Assembly (NCBI GenBank): GCA_024686575.1
Contig: GCA_024686575.1_4863.1
Length of the DNA stretch: 64,000 nt
From: a phage
Direction: 5' to 3' (one strand)
Made by a program: the position numbers and the translations under genes. Below are positions 52,279-57,446 of this stretch, piece after piece. Within the stretch, counting starts at the first letter, position 1. Every line of letters begins with the position of its first letter. The notes beneath the pieces are model-generated. The model did no database searches. It had not been told where the DNA came from and worked only from the letters and a program-made list of their open reading frames with translations.

Positions 52279-52662
52279 TTAACTTGCATCGTGTGGAACA
52301 GTCACCCAATCGTGCCATTTTTCAGAGTAAAGACGATAAGCCATCTTTGGATTCTGATCGACACTACCGGCCGGGTTCTCATTCCACAACACGTACGTAT
52401 ATAACTCGTACGACGAAGTGTTACGGATACTTGACGTGCGGGTGACGTAGTACGTCAACCCGCGTTGGTTAAGGAACAGGCCGCTGTAATGTTCAGTGAC
52501 CATGTAGTAGTGAAACGCCTGGTTGATAGTGGCGTCGGTACAGAGTTTCTTAGCGACGTCTTCTACGCCGGGATACGCCTTTAGAATGTTTTCGAGAAAA
52601 CTTGCTAAAGTCATTCCGATGTAGGGTGGCAGCGGCTCTGCTGGACGCGGCGGAGTGAGCAT
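52279..52662 (-). CDS. hypothetical protein
   Basis: 127 aa ORF with AAGGAA Shine-Dalgarno before ATG at 52662; overlaps the 3-prime end of the helicase ORF by about 113 nt in another frame. Confidence 0.5.
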   Translation of the reverse strand: MLTPPRPAEPLPPYIGMTLASFLENILKAYPGVEDVAKKLCTDATINQAFHYYMVTEHYSGLFLNQRGLTYYVTRTSSIRNTSSYELYTYVLWNENPAGSVDQNPKMAYRLYSEKWHDWVTVPHDAS

Positions 52663-55294
52663 GTGATTTCCTTACAACGTAGGGGGATGTCGCAATACGG
52701 AACGACAATACGACATCCTTGAGTGATTTCTGACGGGCATTCAGGTAATTGCAATGCTTCGGTACGTTATACGCATGGAATAACCACACCGTTGGGTCTA
52801 TTTCACCCCATTCGTTGTGGAGAATCTTACGTGGACGACCGGCCATCTGTTCGTTCAGTTGCTGGTCTTCTACCGGGGTTGAGATGTACATGTGTACCAA
52901 CCCAGGTTTATCGACCGCAGTCCCCGCTTTCCCCGGTGTGGAGATAGAGAAGTCTGCTTGGATAAAGTCGTCATACGAATCGCCTGCATTATATTTCGCC
53001 ACCATCAGTGGATGGAATACAGGGTCACGCGATAACTTATCTTTCACATACTCGGTAAAGAACTCACACATCGCTACCGTAGCAAAGAGTATCAAACATT
53101 TTTGGCCAGGCTGATACCGTTTAAGAAACGATTTCTCAACCACATCCCAGATCATGTTTGCGTATTCTAAATGCAAGTTCTCTTTAATCAGCTTCCCTTC
53201 GAAGAGCTTGTGGTTATACGGCGTCATCTTCGACGCCCACCACGCAAACTTCTTATCATCCAGTCGATAGTACAACGCCTTCACGTCAACCACCGGAATG
53301 ATTGGAATACTGATTCGGTACTCCATTGGGAAACGTTCTAAATACCGCTCCGCGATAAAGGCTTTACTGCTACCCGGCTTAAGAGTTGCAGACATCTCTA
53401 TCGATGCCGGCGGATTCAACATTATACCAGCCATGTAAACGAGGTGAAAATGCTCGTGCACCTCATCCATCGCCACCAGACCCACACCCAGAACATCATA
53501 AAACGTATCCAGGTCCACAGGGTTAGTCGCAGCAGTGTTAATGTACTCCTTCAGGAAACGCTGTAGAGAGACCGTGGGGAGGATTATTACCTTAATACCA
53601 CGACTATCTAGCTCTCCCGACTTACCCATCTCCAGTGCGTCGTAAATCGCCTGTACGCCTGTACAAACTAACACCTCGTCACGAAGTATACGAAGTCCTG
53701 TTTCATCATCACAGACGTCAAACAGCCATTTGGGAACGTACGACGGACGGTGAATCAATGCGGTACGGGTTCCCCGTTTAACCATCGACTTCATACAGGT
53801 CTTGGTGTTGTGCGTAACAATCCACTGTCCCAGAACGTACAGATGTTCATCGTTGTCGACAGTAATGCACGAACCATGACTCTTCCCAACATACACGATA
53901 GACTTAACACGGAGTTTCAGTGTATCGTTGTATTGACCGTTGTCGCGACACAGCGCTTTCTTACGCGGGAGGTTGAACAGCATTGAAGGTGTCTTGTGCC
54001 TAATGAACACCATATAAGCCAATTTACCTTCTCTACGTTCTCCTTTGTAAGTAAAGAACGGACGTTTTGTGGATATAGTTGCAATACCACCTAACGATCT
54101 CACCAACTCCTGGACGCCCAACGCCAGCGACTCGCTGGTGCTACAATACGACGGCTGCCCTCCATCTTTATTCACGGTTCCGTCCGTGTCCATTAAACCG
54201 CGCAGCAGCTCCCAGCGTTGCTCAATCGAGCCTTCAAAATATTCATCCGGAATATATTTTCTATCAGACCCTTTCCCTAGAAGACCGTGGTCCTGCAAAT
54301 AGAGCGGCCAGGACATCGGCACTTCACGTCTGCGACGACGCATTCTATACTGATAACGATCGGCGGGAACCATCTCGGTATCGTCAGGTAAATACTTCCT
54401 CACCAGCTCGACAGTTTCTGGATCGGCTGATGTGAAGCCTACCGCGCCATTTTCACAGGCGTGGCCGTTTCCCAAGAATGCCCCCATGAGATACGGATGT
54501 ATTTTAAAGCACTTTTCACTTGTCTCTTCCGGTTCAGGTAACGGAATGTAGACTCGCGGGTTCGGCATTGCAATCAGTCGCTGAATTTCTTCCGTACTTC
54601 TTACCTGCCACCGAGTGTTTGGTGTGGTATTGACGTAGTAGGATTGCCAGAGATGCTCTTTACCGACCACAGTCTTACGTCCGTCAGCAAAAGTTATCTC
54701 GTAAAAATCCCAATCTTCATGCGGGTACACCGCCGTCACATTCGTCGGCTTCCCATCCCTACCGATTACCACATCCCCGACTTCTAGCTCTCCATGTAAT
54801 TTCCACCCACCAGGAATCCTTACACGCTGATCCCATCTACAGACCTTTCCTCTTCCTGTTTGTATCGCGAAAACCGTTTGTGAACGCGATGGATCTGTTG
54901 CGGCGGCTACGACTTCATTCTGATAATAGAAACGCGACTCTGGGTCTGTTTCTTCCATCTTGAATCCGTAATTATCAAACGTGCACTTATAAGGTTCTGC
55001 ACGTTCAGGATGGTGCTCTGTTAGCTTGTACTGAAAAGCGTATTCAATTGCTGCTCGTTGGAGGATATGTTTAATCTTCTCAGCGAACACTTTATGGAAA
55101 ATGAACGTCCTTAAAGACGGAATGTGAGCGTAGTACGCGTCACCGCGTTCCGTAGTTATTCGTCCATGTTGCTTGCCCATCTTTGGGGCGTGCATATTCT
55201 CTTCGGCCCACGCGAGTATGGCCCTTTCAGCCTGGCGGATAGGGACTTCAACCCGTACCCCCATACTCGTGTAAGTCATTTGAATTTCTACCAT
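52550..55294 (-). CDS. DExH-box (SF2-type) helicase/ATPase interrupted by an intein
   Basis: 914 aa from ATG at 55294 (GAGG Shine-Dalgarno; track N-terminal extension rejected); Walker-A-like AIQTGRGKV, motif II AMDEVHEH, motif III SAT; about 345 aa intein inserted after GRGKV. Confidence 0.75.
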   Translation of the reverse strand: MVEIQMTYTSMGVRVEVPIRQAERAILAWAEENMHAPKMGKQHGRITTERGDAYYAHIPSLRTFIFHKVFAEKIKHILQRAAIEYAFQYKLTEHHPERAEPYKCTFDNYGFKMEETDPESRFYYQNEVVAAATDPSRSQTVFAIQTGRGKVCRWDQRVRIPGGWKLHGELEVGDVVIGRDGKPTNVTAVYPHEDWDFYEITFADGRKTVVGKEHLWQSYYVNTTPNTRWQVRSTEEIQRLIAMPNPRVYIPLPEPEETSEKCFKIHPYLMGAFLGNGHACENGAVGFTSADPETVELVRKYLPDDTEMVPADRYQYRMRRRRREVPMSWPLYLQDHGLLGKGSDRKYIPDEYFEGSIEQRWELLRGLMDTDGTVNKDGGQPSYCSTSESLALGVQELVRSLGGIATISTKRPFFTYKGERREGKLAYMVFIRHKTPSMLFNLPRKKALCRDNGQYNDTLKLRVKSIVYVGKSHGSCITVDNDEHLYVLGQWIVTHNTKTCMKSMVKRGTRTALIHRPSYVPKWLFDVCDDETGLRILRDEVLVCTGVQAIYDALEMGKSGELDSRGIKVIILPTVSLQRFLKEYINTAATNPVDLDTFYDVLGVGLVAMDEVHEHFHLVYMAGIMLNPPASIEMSATLKPGSSKAFIAERYLERFPMEYRISIPIIPVVDVKALYYRLDDKKFAWWASKMTPYNHKLFEGKLIKENLHLEYANMIWDVVEKSFLKRYQPGQKCLILFATVAMCEFFTEYVKDKLSRDPVFHPLMVAKYNAGDSYDDFIQADFSISTPGKAGTAVDKPGLVHMYISTPVEDQQLNEQMAGRPRKILHNEWGEIDPTVWLFHAYNVPKHCNYLNARQKSLKDVVLSFRIATSPYVVRKSHAHSAASSRAAATLHRNDFSKFSRKHSKGVSRRRRRR
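53807..54841 (-). mobile_element. intein with LAGLIDADG homing-endonuclease domain
   Basis: Starts with Cys after the P-loop and ends VLGQWIVTHN followed by Thr; LAGLIDADG-like motifs YLMGAFLGNGHA and LLRGLMDTDGTV; in frame within the helicase ORF. Confidence 0.7.
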
Positions 55295-55340: not shown

Positions 55341-57446
55341 TTACAACTCAATTACCACAGCGGCTCCTAGGTCATCGTACAACGATGCCGGGATTTTGTA
55401 CTCGGTATAAAAACCAACGCGATCGATATTCCCCTGCTGTCCTTCAAACAACAACATCGGAATTGCCGAGCGCAAACTAATGAGCGTGTTGTGATCGACA
55501 AACCGTTTCCCTGTAGCGTTAGTAGAATCCTCACTGTCAAATCCTACTGCCGGGAACGGATTGGTTGGCGACTCTACACGAGATATCGCCAACATAATCG
55601 CAATGTGCGTCATCGGTATACCACTCAGCTTACGCTGGATATACTTAAACGTGTCCATCAACGCATAAGTACACTGTTTCTCTGTAGCACCACCCATTTC
55701 AACCAACGTCACCGGTTTCACACGACCTTGTTTCTTGTTCAGCTTCACAGTCGAGGCTGTGTTGATGATTTCCACAATGTCTTCGTTCTTATCGGCAGCA
55801 ATCGAACGGAGCTTGGTTTCTAAGCCGGCTACGAACTCCGCCATCGATTCAGAACGGTTGGTGTAGACCAGGACCGGGTGTTTCGGGTTCCATCCTTTTA
55901 AGGGGATTTCTACCGTCTTCTTCTCGATACGAATGTTCGCTCGTTGTTTCAAGAAGTAGTGCAGGAACGGTTTAGAGAAGTTCCCACAAACACCCATTCG
56001 CACATCGATAGAATCCGCAGCGATTATCTGCCCATCTTCTAAACGACGTTGGAAAGTTAAGTCGGTGATTTCTGGTAATGCCGTTTCATCAATTGCATCG
56101 AGATCTTCATGATACGCAATCTGGCTCAGCTCCGAATAAACTTTGTCGGTAACAACCAACTCGTATTCTGACCAATTCCCACGCTGTGGTTTTGGCAGCA
56201 AGCACAACCCTTTCAGAGAGTTATGTTTGTATTCGGTCATATACTCACGCATACGTGGGGTGAGTACCAGGTTGAGCAGATAACGCAAGAAGTCAAGGTG
56301 CTTGGTAGAGAGAATTCCCTGTGTACCCTTTTCCGAGATGGACGTGGATGCCAGGTGACCTGGTGACGTACCTTCAGAGAGGTTATAAATCAAATCCCCC
56401 ATACAGGTCGCACAGATGGACTGATTCGCCATCTCTTTACAGGTCATGGCACTACGGAAGACCAGCGGTTTGCCAACCAGGTCTGCGTATCCGCCTTTCT
56501 CAAATCGCAACCACGGACCATTATCGCCTTCTAAACGATAACGCATCCCCACCATCGCTTTATAGGCACGCTCATCCAGCTGCGTATCCTTAAACGTGTA
56601 GCGGTGTGCGTGTGTTGTACCGCAGTCGTCGTACGTGAAATACATCAGTACGTTTGCTGCCAGCTGCAGTTTACGTGAGGCGTATTCTGCTTCGGCAATC
56701 TTGTCAGTGTTGTACAGGTGGGAACGTGAAGTTGCACCAGATTCTTTCAAACGCGAAATAACCGAATGCATTCCGGTAAAGAAGCCTTCCCACACCTGAT
56801 TGGTGTATACACGTGAGTCAATTTCTGACGTTTTGCCGCGCACGAACGCTTGCAGTACCTGGTTCATCTTCACGGTACCGTCCAGTACCGACATTACGAC
56901 TGGGTTATACCGCAGCGCAGGGTCTTTGAAGATTTTCTCGATAAGCTTATACGCTTCTTCAACCATATCCTGACCATCTTCATCGTAGCCAGTAGGATAC
57001 TGCACTTCCCACTGACGGATGAGTTCGAAGTTCGGGTGGTCGTAGATCTCCATCATCGTATCAAAGTCGATTGTCGTACAATAGGACAGCAAGTTCTTCA
57101 CTGTCATGTTGAACGCATCGGCGTAGACATGTTGACTCAGGATATAACGCGTTTCAGCAAGGTCGACACCTGCTTTACGGGCCAGTACCGCTGCTTCCGA
57201 CATAAAGTCCAGATGCAGGTCATCTGTTGCTACCTGACCTGGACGATACGCCATGGTCGATGGAGTGGGCACCTGCGGATACAGACGCGACACACCCCAA
57301 TACGGCCAGCTGAGTTTGATGTGGCGACTAGACATTTCCAACGACTTACCATCGTCGAAAGTCACGTAATAACGCCCGCGTAGTTTCCACACCTGATCAG
57401 AGTTAAGCATACGCAAATCACGTACGTGTACAGAACGACCCGCCAT
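55341..57446 (-). CDS. multisubunit RNA polymerase beta-prime-like subunit, C-terminal part
   Basis: 701 aa; ASTSISEKGTQGILSTKH matches the beta-prime trigger-loop signature AAQSIGEPGTQLTMRTFH; preceded by a Cys cluster (C-x8-C-x2-C) as in the C-terminal Zn site of beta-prime. Confidence 0.7.
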   Translation of the reverse strand: MAGRSVHVRDLRMLNSDQVWKLRGRYYVTFDDGKSLEMSSRHIKLSWPYWGVSRLYPQVPTPSTMAYRPGQVATDDLHLDFMSEAAVLARKAGVDLAETRYILSQHVYADAFNMTVKNLLSYCTTIDFDTMMEIYDHPNFELIRQWEVQYPTGYDEDGQDMVEEAYKLIEKIFKDPALRYNPVVMSVLDGTVKMNQVLQAFVRGKTSEIDSRVYTNQVWEGFFTGMHSVISRLKESGATSRSHLYNTDKIAEAEYASRKLQLAANVLMYFTYDDCGTTHAHRYTFKDTQLDERAYKAMVGMRYRLEGDNGPWLRFEKGGYADLVGKPLVFRSAMTCKEMANQSICATCMGDLIYNLSEGTSPGHLASTSISEKGTQGILSTKHLDFLRYLLNLVLTPRMREYMTEYKHNSLKGLCLLPKPQRGNWSEYELVVTDKVYSELSQIAYHEDLDAIDETALPEITDLTFQRRLEDGQIIAADSIDVRMGVCGNFSKPFLHYFLKQRANIRIEKKTVEIPLKGWNPKHPVLVYTNRSESMAEFVAGLETKLRSIAADKNEDIVEIINTASTVKLNKKQGRVKPVTLVEMGGATEKQCTYALMDTFKYIQRKLSGIPMTHIAIMLAISRVESPTNPFPAVGFDSEDSTNATGKRFVDHNTLISLRSAIPMLLFEGQQGNIDRVGFYTEYKIPASLYDDLGAAVVIEL

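Follow-up and report, generated by a model that had tools for sequence, protein, structure and literature searches.

The 64,000-nucleotide stretch of phage DNA analysed here (the window) carries on its minus strand an open reading frame of 914 codons plus stop (positions 52550..55294, ATG start, MVEIQ...) in which the Walker A P-loop of a helicase is interrupted by a long in-frame block, and the question is what this block is, where its edges lie, and whether it is likely to splice and to move. With considerable confidence, we identify the block as a class 3 (WCT-type) intein that contains a two-motif LAGLIDADG domain and lies between Lys150 and the Walker A Thr (GRGK|T, the bar marking the insertion point) of an SF2 DExH helicase from an SPN3US-like jumbo phage. 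The annotations of Salmonella phage JN03, Escherichia phage Lh1B and Erwinia phage Kwan give the precursor ORF an identical start and stop. The features from which the first-pass annotation had deduced an intein are all present in the sequence, namely, the 914-aa ORF, AIQTGRGKV, AMDEVHEH, SAT, two LAGLIDADG-like motifs, and an in-frame block that ends in DNDEHLYVLGQWIVTHN and is followed by Thr.

The N-extein (54845..55294, minus strand; residues 1-150, ending ...AIQTGRGK), as delimited by alignment with the intein-free helicases of phages SEGD1 and SPN3US, contains the first part of Walker A, or motif I (codons G147-R-G-K150, located on the ORF at 54845..54856, minus strand), with G147, G149 and K150 invariant among 23 intein-free orthologs. 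The C-extein (52550..53806, minus strand; 418 aa plus stop), which has an SF2 fold, bears motif II, DEVH (residues 610-613, 53456-53467, minus strand) and motif III, SAT (residues 635-637, 53384-53392, minus strand). After in silico splicing, the SF2 motif set is complete (GRGK|T, DEVH, SAT), and these positions are invariant in the intein-free orthologs. The joined exteins match the PHROG profile phrog_16 'DNA helicase' (E = 6.8e-57); searches of Pfam and NCBIfam with the spliced extein or an intein-free ortholog gave no match, and neither did a 23-sequence extein profile compared to PDB sequences. The fold search was run with a model of P0011 (pLDDT 79.6), an ortholog that lacks the intein: the model has the pair of RecA-like domains and the topology of SF2, and it matches T4 UvsW (E = 8e-13), as well as XPB/Ssl2, Rad54 and UvrB, with the UvsW and XPB matches ranging from 1e-12 to 1e-11. 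Thus, with the sequence profiles of Pfam, NCBIfam and PDB silent, the assignment as a helicase is based on the PHROG match, the motifs and the fold search. The interrupted gene encodes an SF2 DExH helicase, and the phage is a jumbo phage of the Salmonella type, SPN3US-like (Seoulvirus), in agreement with the helicase type proposed in the first-pass annotation and with the jumbo-phage origin that it had assumed, the latter borne out by related phage records.

Compared to SEGD1 and SPN3US, the window contains a 1038-nt insertion (53807..54844, minus strand; 346 codons, VCRWDQ...WIVTHN). In these two phages, the orthologs are shorter by exactly 346 codons and run QTGRGK|TKS across this point; the intein-less site of the SEGD1 type is ...GGTCGTGGGAAG|ACGAAGTCG..., or, in letters around the insertion point in SEGD1, CAGACAGGTCGTGGGAAG|ACGAAGTCGTGTATG. 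The insertion is absent from 75 of the 120 best ortholog clusters, where the proteins are about 565-569 aa long. That the insertion splits the Walker A P-loop, as claimed earlier, is thus confirmed by the intein-free orthologs.

The insertion is recognised as an intein at the levels of sequence and fold. Pfam LAGLIDADG_3 matches intein residues 210-259 well above its threshold (E = 1.7e-10; 41.4 bits, cut-off 22.5) and Pfam Hom_end matches with E = 2.7e-4, whereas Hom_end_hint stays under threshold (15.4 bits vs. a cut-off of 32.1) and no further Pfam HINT family was reported; we attribute this to the limited sensitivity of the models, the PDB and fold searches both being positive. The best PHROG matches are intein-bearing terminase families (E down to 4.8e-32), and both termini match DnaB inteins among PDB sequences (E = 2.4e-9), so that the similarity of the insert is far above the chance level. 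For the AF2 model of the intein (pLDDT 91.4), the fold search gave PI-SceI and TliVMA (E = 1e-17) as well as the class 3 MsmDnaB1 intein at a TM score of 0.81; further matches are I-DmoI, I-Tsp061I and the endonuclease domain of PI-SceI. The element is accordingly modelled as a HINT fold with an inserted two-helix LAGLIDADG fold of the alpha-beta-beta-alpha-beta-beta-alpha type. Pfam, PHROG, PDB, fold and presence/absence data thus converge on the intein with a two-motif LAGLIDADG domain that had been proposed from the sequence.

The distribution of the element is patchy. Of the 50 related phage records that the 4-kb region matched, no more than 5 retain its full length and thus have an insert; Erwinia phage Kwan is a sixth phage with an intein at the helicase site. 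Between the window and JN03/P0002, the exteins are 99% identical whereas the inteins are 58% identical, and nine more such pairs were found; for JN03 and Lh1B together, the respective values are 98-99% and only about 59%. The closest intein is that of Kwan gp48 (69.7% amino acid identity), which has Val1 and the motif GNG in common with the intein of the window, and the allele of the window itself is represented by a cluster of 56 sequences. Mismatches to SEGD1 crowd around the insertion point, at −160 to −4 and then at +2, +6 and +8: the N-extein tract adjoining the intein (54848..55004, minus strand) has 51 mismatches in 157 nt, and on the C-extein side a short tract (53798..53806, minus strand) reads ACC AAG ACC vs. 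ACG AAG TCG in intein-free SEGD1, the former being common to all three intein-bearing Seoulvirus alleles examined. This flanking tract, dense over about 160 nt, resembles a co-conversion tract, and could instead stem from ordinary mosaic recombination. From the patchy occurrence among near-identical phages and the flanking extein sequence that appears to be carried along, we infer that, at the DNA level, the intein acts like a homing element. The base composition carries no signal of foreign origin (49.2% GC in the intein vs. 48.9% in the window, and likewise for GC3), and tblastn found no second intein of the same family in the window.

The endonuclease domain is where mobility comes into doubt. 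The second LAGLIDADG motif, LLRGLMDTDG (54179..54208, minus strand; within the Pfam LAGLIDADG_3 match), is intact, with D219, D221 and G222 invariant in 43 aligned sequences. The first motif, LMGAFLGNG (54464..54490, minus strand), has Asn126 (54467-54469) where a catalytic Asp is usual, so that an acidic residue closes motif 2 (Asp221) and not motif 1 (GNG). Motif 1 ends in GNG in the window, in Kwan and in about 11 of 46 inteins, and in GDG in JN03 and most relatives. GNG in place of GDG makes double-strand cleavage doubtful, and classical double-strand-break homing may therefore fail for the allele of the window. Moreover, the P0070 and P0099 orthologs have lost most of the endonuclease domain, which indicates that decay occurs in this intein family. 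An intein that splices but is immobile, with a dead LAGLIDADG domain, kept by vertical descent and ordinary recombination, would account for these observations, and this is the strongest of the alternatives, although we consider it unlikely on balance. The endonuclease core of the GNG lineage has pN of 0.17 vs. a saturated pS of 0.83, and, compared to Kwan, pN is 0.15-0.28 and pS about 0.8 (saturated) in the splicing and endonuclease parts alike; because synonymous sites are saturated in comparisons with the Kwan or JN03 inteins (pS about 0.8), no dN/dS ratio is given. These values indicate purifying selection on both domains. The intact and invariant motif 2, the identical allele in the 56-sequence cluster and the co-conversion-like tracts beside the insertion likewise speak against immobility. 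Nicking endonucleases, too, can support homing in phages.

A more speculative reading, to which we assign a low probability, is that the lineage with Val1 and GNG, to which the window, Kwan and their relatives belong, is a functionally specialised class 3 intein. Its LAGLIDADG domain, which purifying selection has kept although the first catalytic position is Asn, could conceivably be a natural nicking enzyme or another non-canonical homing enzyme; another possibility is that Cys2 (54839-54841, minus strand), the second intein residue, near the scissile bond, pairs with Cys326, making splicing redox-gated; if so, it would depend on infection conditions whether the ATP site of the helicase is activated.

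The first-pass annotation had placed the element at 53807-54841, with Cys as its first residue, Val left in the extein and a spliced P-loop reading GRGKVT, implying the standard Cys1 mechanism. The end at 53807 holds, and comparison with intein-free orthologs shows clean presence/absence, but the other edge lies one residue further, at 54844: given the 346-codon polymorphism and the GRGK|T junction in the orthologs, the Val codon belongs to the intein, and Val1 (GTC, 54842..54844, minus strand), a non-nucleophilic residue, is its first. A class 1 intein with Cys as first residue and nucleophile is very improbable. It has in its favour the Cys directly after Val and the 9 of 46 orthologous inteins that do start with Cys at the true position 1 (e.g. 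CCAHGT in Lh1B). Against it, Thr or Ser comes directly after GK in every intein-free ortholog, and the length gap is 346 codons; an extra Val would break the invariant GK[ST]; the Cys is missing in the closest intein relatives, which start with VARHD, VAKHD, VVSEE and VVRHD; block A (Pro11) is in register only with Val as residue 1; and the WCT triplet is complete. The Cys-first boundary was therefore rejected on the ortholog junction, the unconserved Cys and the block A register, and with it the GRGKVT loop: splicing would leave a canonical GRGKT Walker A in a 568-aa helicase.

The residues expected of a class 3 intein, which is defined by the WCT triplet (Trp at B:12, Cys at F:4, Thr at G:5; PMC2807308, PMC5050341), are all in place. 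Block B has His64-Leu65-Trp66 (B:10 to B:12; 54647..54655, minus strand), with His and Trp invariant in 43 aligned sequences; Cys326 (block F:4; 53867..53869, minus strand), the predicted initiating nucleophile, is invariant in the same set; block G consists of Thr344-His345-Asn346 (53807..53815, minus strand), identified from sequence and alignment; and Thr+1 (53804..53806, minus strand), the first C-extein residue, is at once the Walker A Thr and the predicted second nucleophile, invariant in 43 sequences. Among the 46 orthologous inteins, Trp66, Cys326, Asn346 and Thr+1 are invariant and Thr344 is at least 90% conserved (43 aligned). [quoted passage not shown] The roles of the class 3 DnaB-type catalytic residues have been established experimentally (PMC2807308, PMC5222942, PMC7664689), in particular, those of His65 and Trp67 of MchDnaB1/MsmDnaB1 (PMC5222942) and of the block F Cys124/Cys118 (PMC7664689, PMC5222942). 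With Val, rather than the Cys, Ser or Thr of class 1, at position 1, the WCT triplet Trp66/Cys326/Thr344 and Thr at +1, the window carries the class 3 (WCT) signature, and the element is an ordinary member of this known class. Residue 1 varies across the 46 orthologous inteins at this site (A21/C9/V7/S6/M1/G1/Q1). The ortholog set is thus a natural experiment, one insertion site with seven first residues and an invariant block F Cys, and lends support to the rule that, in class 3 inteins, the nucleophile is a residue other than the first.

By homology to characterised class 3 inteins, we infer that the element splices and homes. The 914-aa precursor would fold with its ATP site split; Cys326, helped by His64, Trp66 and Thr344, would attack the Lys150-Val1 bond to give a branched thioester; the N-extein would then pass to Thr+1, Asn346 would cyclise and free the 346-aa intein, and an O-to-N shift would yield the helicase of 568 aa, its P-loop now the canonical GRGKT. 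A non-splicing insertion, that is, a defective intein in a pseudogene or in a helicase whose P-loop remains permanently split, is highly unlikely: Val1 is an uncommon first residue, but the reading frame is intact, H64, W66, C326, T344, H345, N346 and T+1 are all present and conserved across 43 sequences, the splicing domain is under purifying selection (pN 0.15 vs. pS 0.8, compared to Kwan), and the helicase, both extein halves included, is conserved across jumbo phages.

The finding leaves the current understanding of inteins unchanged. Intein annotation is missing in the related records of Kwan, JN03 and Lh1B, and wrong product names in related records ('terminase large subunit', 'DarB-like antirestriction') trace to the intein, whereas the corrected boundaries yield the true 568-aa helicase. 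In the literature, of which coverage was incomplete, no specific report was found that describes an intein in the helicases of SPN3US-like or phiKZ-like phages. Given the several deeply diverged intein lineages in near-identical backbones, jumbo phages may suit the study of intein turnover.

Among known systems, the best full-length structural matches are PI-SceI (VMA1), TliVMA, PhoVMA and PI-PfuI (E = 1e-17 to 6e-12, TM 0.6-0.7), which have the same architecture of HINT plus double-motif LAGLIDADG but, unlike the intein of the window, are class 1 with Cys1, and are only 14-17% identical to it. PI-SceI has the catalytic Asp in both motifs, where motif 1 of the window has Asn. In the splicing domain, the likeness is to the class 3 DnaB inteins (mycobacteriophage Bethlehem DnaB, the prototype; M. 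smegmatis DnaB-1, PDB 6bs8; M. chimaera DnaB1, PDB 6rix), with about 25-29% identity. The solved DnaB inteins start with Ala, compared to Val in the window, and residue 1 is non-nucleophilic in both; the solved DnaB1 are mini-inteins without an endonuclease domain, whereas the intein of the window keeps a full LAGLIDADG domain. Common to both are a helicase host with P-loop insertion, gapless block B (EHLW in the window vs. HQW) and block F (SCITVDNDEHLY vs. RCVEVDNPEHLY), WCT at B:12, F:4 and G:5, and Ser/Thr at +1 (PMC2807308, PMC5222942, PMC7664689). However, the DnaB inteins sit in a replicative hexameric helicase, and that of the window in a UvsW/XPB-like SF2 helicase from a jumbo phage. 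The mycobacteriophage terminase intein TerL1-a (Kelley et al. 2016, PMC5050341) has the identical Walker A insertion point GK|T, the 'classic' P-loop site between the invariant Lys and Thr (PMC5050341), and likewise combines a phage host with LAGLIDADG endonuclease blocks, although its host gene is a terminase of an actinobacteriophage rather than a helicase of an enterobacterial jumbo phage. Kwan gp48 and its counterparts in Salmonella phage JN03 and Escherichia phage Lh1B share with the intein of the window the host gene, the insertion site and the WCT residues.

The precursor ORF (52550–55294, minus strand; 914 aa counted from ATG, with an upstream TTG that would lengthen it to 55351) contains all the features listed in the first-pass annotation, namely, AIQTGRGKV, AMDEVHEH, SAT, and a block that carries the two LAGLIDADG-like motifs (YLMGAFLGNGHA and LLRGLMDTDGTV) and ends with DNDEHLYVLGQWIVTHN followed by Thr. 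The 4-kb region is 93–98% identical to Seoulvirus (SPN3US-like jumbo phages of Salmonella and E. coli), where the helicase gene, named putative ATP-dependent DNA helicase, adjoins those for virion RNA polymerase beta-type subunits. Once the intein is taken out in silico, the protein matches the PHROG family phrog_16 'DNA helicase' (E = 6.8e-57). No match to the spliced extein or an intein-free ortholog was found in Pfam or NCBIfam, nor with a 23-sequence profile against PDB sequences; therefore, the structure of a natural intein-free ortholog, P0011, was modelled (pLDDT 79.6). In a Foldseek search, the model falls among SF2 enzymes, i.e. T4 UvsW (E = 8e-13), archaeal and TFIIH XPB, Rad54 and UvrB, and the helicase motifs GxGKT, DEVH and SAT were located. 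Thus, the predicted fold and the motifs, along with the phrog_16 match, support the original reading of the host protein as a DExH helicase.

The final 113 nt of the helicase gene (52550–52662, minus strand) overlap the start of the next ORF in a different frame (52279–52662, minus strand; 127 aa), and the same overlap is annotated in Salmonella phage JN03, SPN3US, Escherichia phage Lh1B and Erwinia phage Kwan. Read in the helicase frame, the overlap yields an Arg-rich tail (...KGVSRRRRRR) that is kept in distant orthologs and is modelled as disordered (pLDDT <50, residues 533–568).

The intein-free relatives SEGD1 and SPN3US encode helicases of 568 aa (...AIQTGRGK/TKSCMK... and ...QTGAGK/SKSFMK..., respectively), and the window gene exceeds theirs by 1038 nt, i.e. 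346 codons. DNA-level comparison with these orthologs places the insert at 53807–54844 (minus strand), so that Val is residue 1 of the intein and Cys is residue 2. The insert indeed splits the P-loop, at GK/T; the annotated length of ~345 aa, with Val left in the extein, and the aberrant spliced loop GRGKVT do not hold. Instead, judging from the intein-free alleles, splicing would restore the same canonical Walker A motif, GRGKT. Because GK/T is split, the unspliced precursor is very likely ATPase-inactive.

The insert matches LAGLIDADG_3 (Pfam; E = 1.7e-10, 41.4 bits, cut-off 22.5) and Hom_end (Pfam; E = 2.7e-4); nearly its whole length is matched by PHROG families with intein-bearing members (terminase, primase, helicase loader; down to E = 4.8e-32), and there are weak, far sub-threshold matches to NCBIfam models of intein-containing proteins (replicative DNA helicase, E = 1.5e-7; GyrA; RecA). 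At the level of sequence profiles, this resemblance to intein and LAGLIDADG families is not a chance one. In a structure model built with 42 orthologs (pLDDT 91.4, pTM 0.90), the full-length matches are endonuclease-bearing inteins (TliVMA, E = 1.9e-17; PI-SceI, E = 6.5e-17; PI-PfuI), the predicted splicing domain matches class 3 DnaB inteins (TM 0.81 to 6bs8, the M. smegmatis DnaB-1 structure), and the inserted domain matches I-DmoI and I-Tsp061I. Profiles and modelled folds accordingly bear out the kind of element first proposed, an intein with a LAGLIDADG domain, whereas its N-terminal boundary, nucleophile and spliced P-loop had to be revised.

Class 3 inteins are defined by a non-nucleophilic residue 1, Trp at B:12, Cys at F:4, Thr at G:5 and Ser or Thr at +1 (PMC2807308; PMC5050341). 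The window intein has the complete set: Val1, Trp66 at block B:12 (EHLW), Cys326 at F:4 (GSCITV), Thr344 at G:5 (THN) and Thr at +1. Among the best 120 clusters of the precursor search, the insert is located exactly at GxGK/T in 45 and is missing in 75. Counting the window (n = 46), the inteins start with A (21), C (9), V (7), S (6), M (1), G (1) or Q (1). They do not vary at the block B Trp, the block F Cys, the terminal His-Asn or Thr+1, and at least 90% of them have Thr at G:5. The class 3 mechanism predicts precisely this combination, with position 1 free to vary and an internal Cys that never changes. The Cys initially taken for the first residue and nucleophile is not conserved even within the Val1 clade (VARHD, VAKHD, VVSEE, VVRHD). 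We consider it highly probable that the helicase P-loop is interrupted by a LAGLIDADG intein of class 3. Several unrelated lineages have a Cys at position 2 or 3, beside the N-terminal scissile bond (VC, CC, CIC, AVC, GVC; residue 2 in the window, residues 1–2 in Lh1B, residue 3 in P0052, P0064 and P0072); a redox role of this Cys is a speculative possibility.

The endonuclease domain has the two LAGLIDADG motifs. The first terminates in GNG (Asn126), compared to GDG in most relatives; the second, MDTDG, is intact and shows no variation in the aligned orthologs. The Asn variant is common to Kwan and ~11/46 inteins. The domain is subject to purifying selection (core pN 0.17 vs. pS 0.83, saturated) and is thus not merely in decay; it may cut both DNA strands, nick one, or just bind. 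Shortened inteins at the same helicase site (P0070, 264 aa; P0099, 260 aa) have lost the first motif and retain a degenerate second one, an apparent step toward mini-inteins.

The distribution of the intein is sporadic. The 4-kb region matches 50 related phage records, only 5 of which keep its full length, i.e. contain the insert; Kwan is a sixth record with an intein at the helicase site. The phage collection search yielded no close match to the window's intein, the best being that of Kwan (69.7% aa); an identical intein is present in the public protein cluster P0001 of 56 sequences. In JN03 and Lh1B, the nearest relatives of the window, the inteins are ~59% identical to that of the window, vs. 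about 98–98.6% (DNA) for the flanks. In 10 protein pairs, the exteins are at least 95% identical but the inteins are <70% identical; between distant helicases, the inteins are more alike than the exteins (e.g. 0.60 vs. 0.29). Synonymous sites are saturated between intein lineages. The history of the intein is decoupled from that of the exteins. Compared to the intein-free SEGD1, mismatches are concentrated around the insertion point, with 51 in the 160 nt immediately upstream and 3 in the first 9 nt downstream, against a background of ~1 per 150 nt; the Lh1B tract is shorter (−10 to +8). This is the pattern that co-conversion during homing would leave, with ordinary mosaic recombination as the alternative source of the tract. 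The Lh1B and JN03 inteins are near-identical save for the first four residues (CCAH vs. ALAQ), and their N-exteins, the helicase parts preceding the intein, are different variants, suggestive of a recombination breakpoint exactly at the splice junction.

Public records carry no annotation of the intein, and some misname the gene. Intein-bearing helicase genes are labelled 'terminase large subunit', 'DarB-like antirestriction', 'RNA polymerase beta subunit' or 'gyrA' (records include OR413581 SPLA3, NC_028999 PhiPA3, NC_007623 EL and OM810292 ZPAH34), names probably transferred via similarity of the intein, not of the host protein. EL-like genomes match this intein family in three places. ORF039 of phage EL (L007, 1745–4855) is homologous (BLASTP E = 2e-13) to the window neighbour gene for a virion RNA polymerase beta'-like subunit (55341–57446, minus strand) and carries a related WCT-type intein (AGVLSS...DHLW...QCITID...VTHN/S) at a non-P-loop site.

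The Walker A K/T position is known as the 'classic' P-loop intein site (PMC5050341), and the original definition of class 3 rests on inteins of phage and helicase-type ATPases, most of them inserted at P-loops (PMC5050341; PMC2807308); thus, the window intein is of a known type. In a literature search of partial coverage, no paper turned up on inteins of SPN3US-like or phiKZ-like helicases. Points of interest are Val as residue 1, the variety of starting residues at a single site, deeply diverged intein lineages that coexist in near-identical phages, and the conserved GNG variant. By analogy with characterized relatives, Cys326 would attack the Lys150-Val1 bond, the N-extein would pass to Thr+1, Asn346 would cyclise and the K-T bond would be re-formed, with homing presumably driven by the endonuclease. 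The roles of the catalytic residues in the M. chimaera DnaB1 and M. smegmatis DnaB-1 inteins come from mutagenesis and crystallography (PMC5222942; PMC7664689). When compared to these class 3 DnaB inteins using HMMER, Cys326 lies opposite Cys118 of the M. smegmatis intein, and His64, Trp66, Cys326 and Thr344-His-Asn match the catalytic residues of M. chimaera DnaB1 (His65, Trp67, Cys124 and Thr143-His-Asn, respectively).
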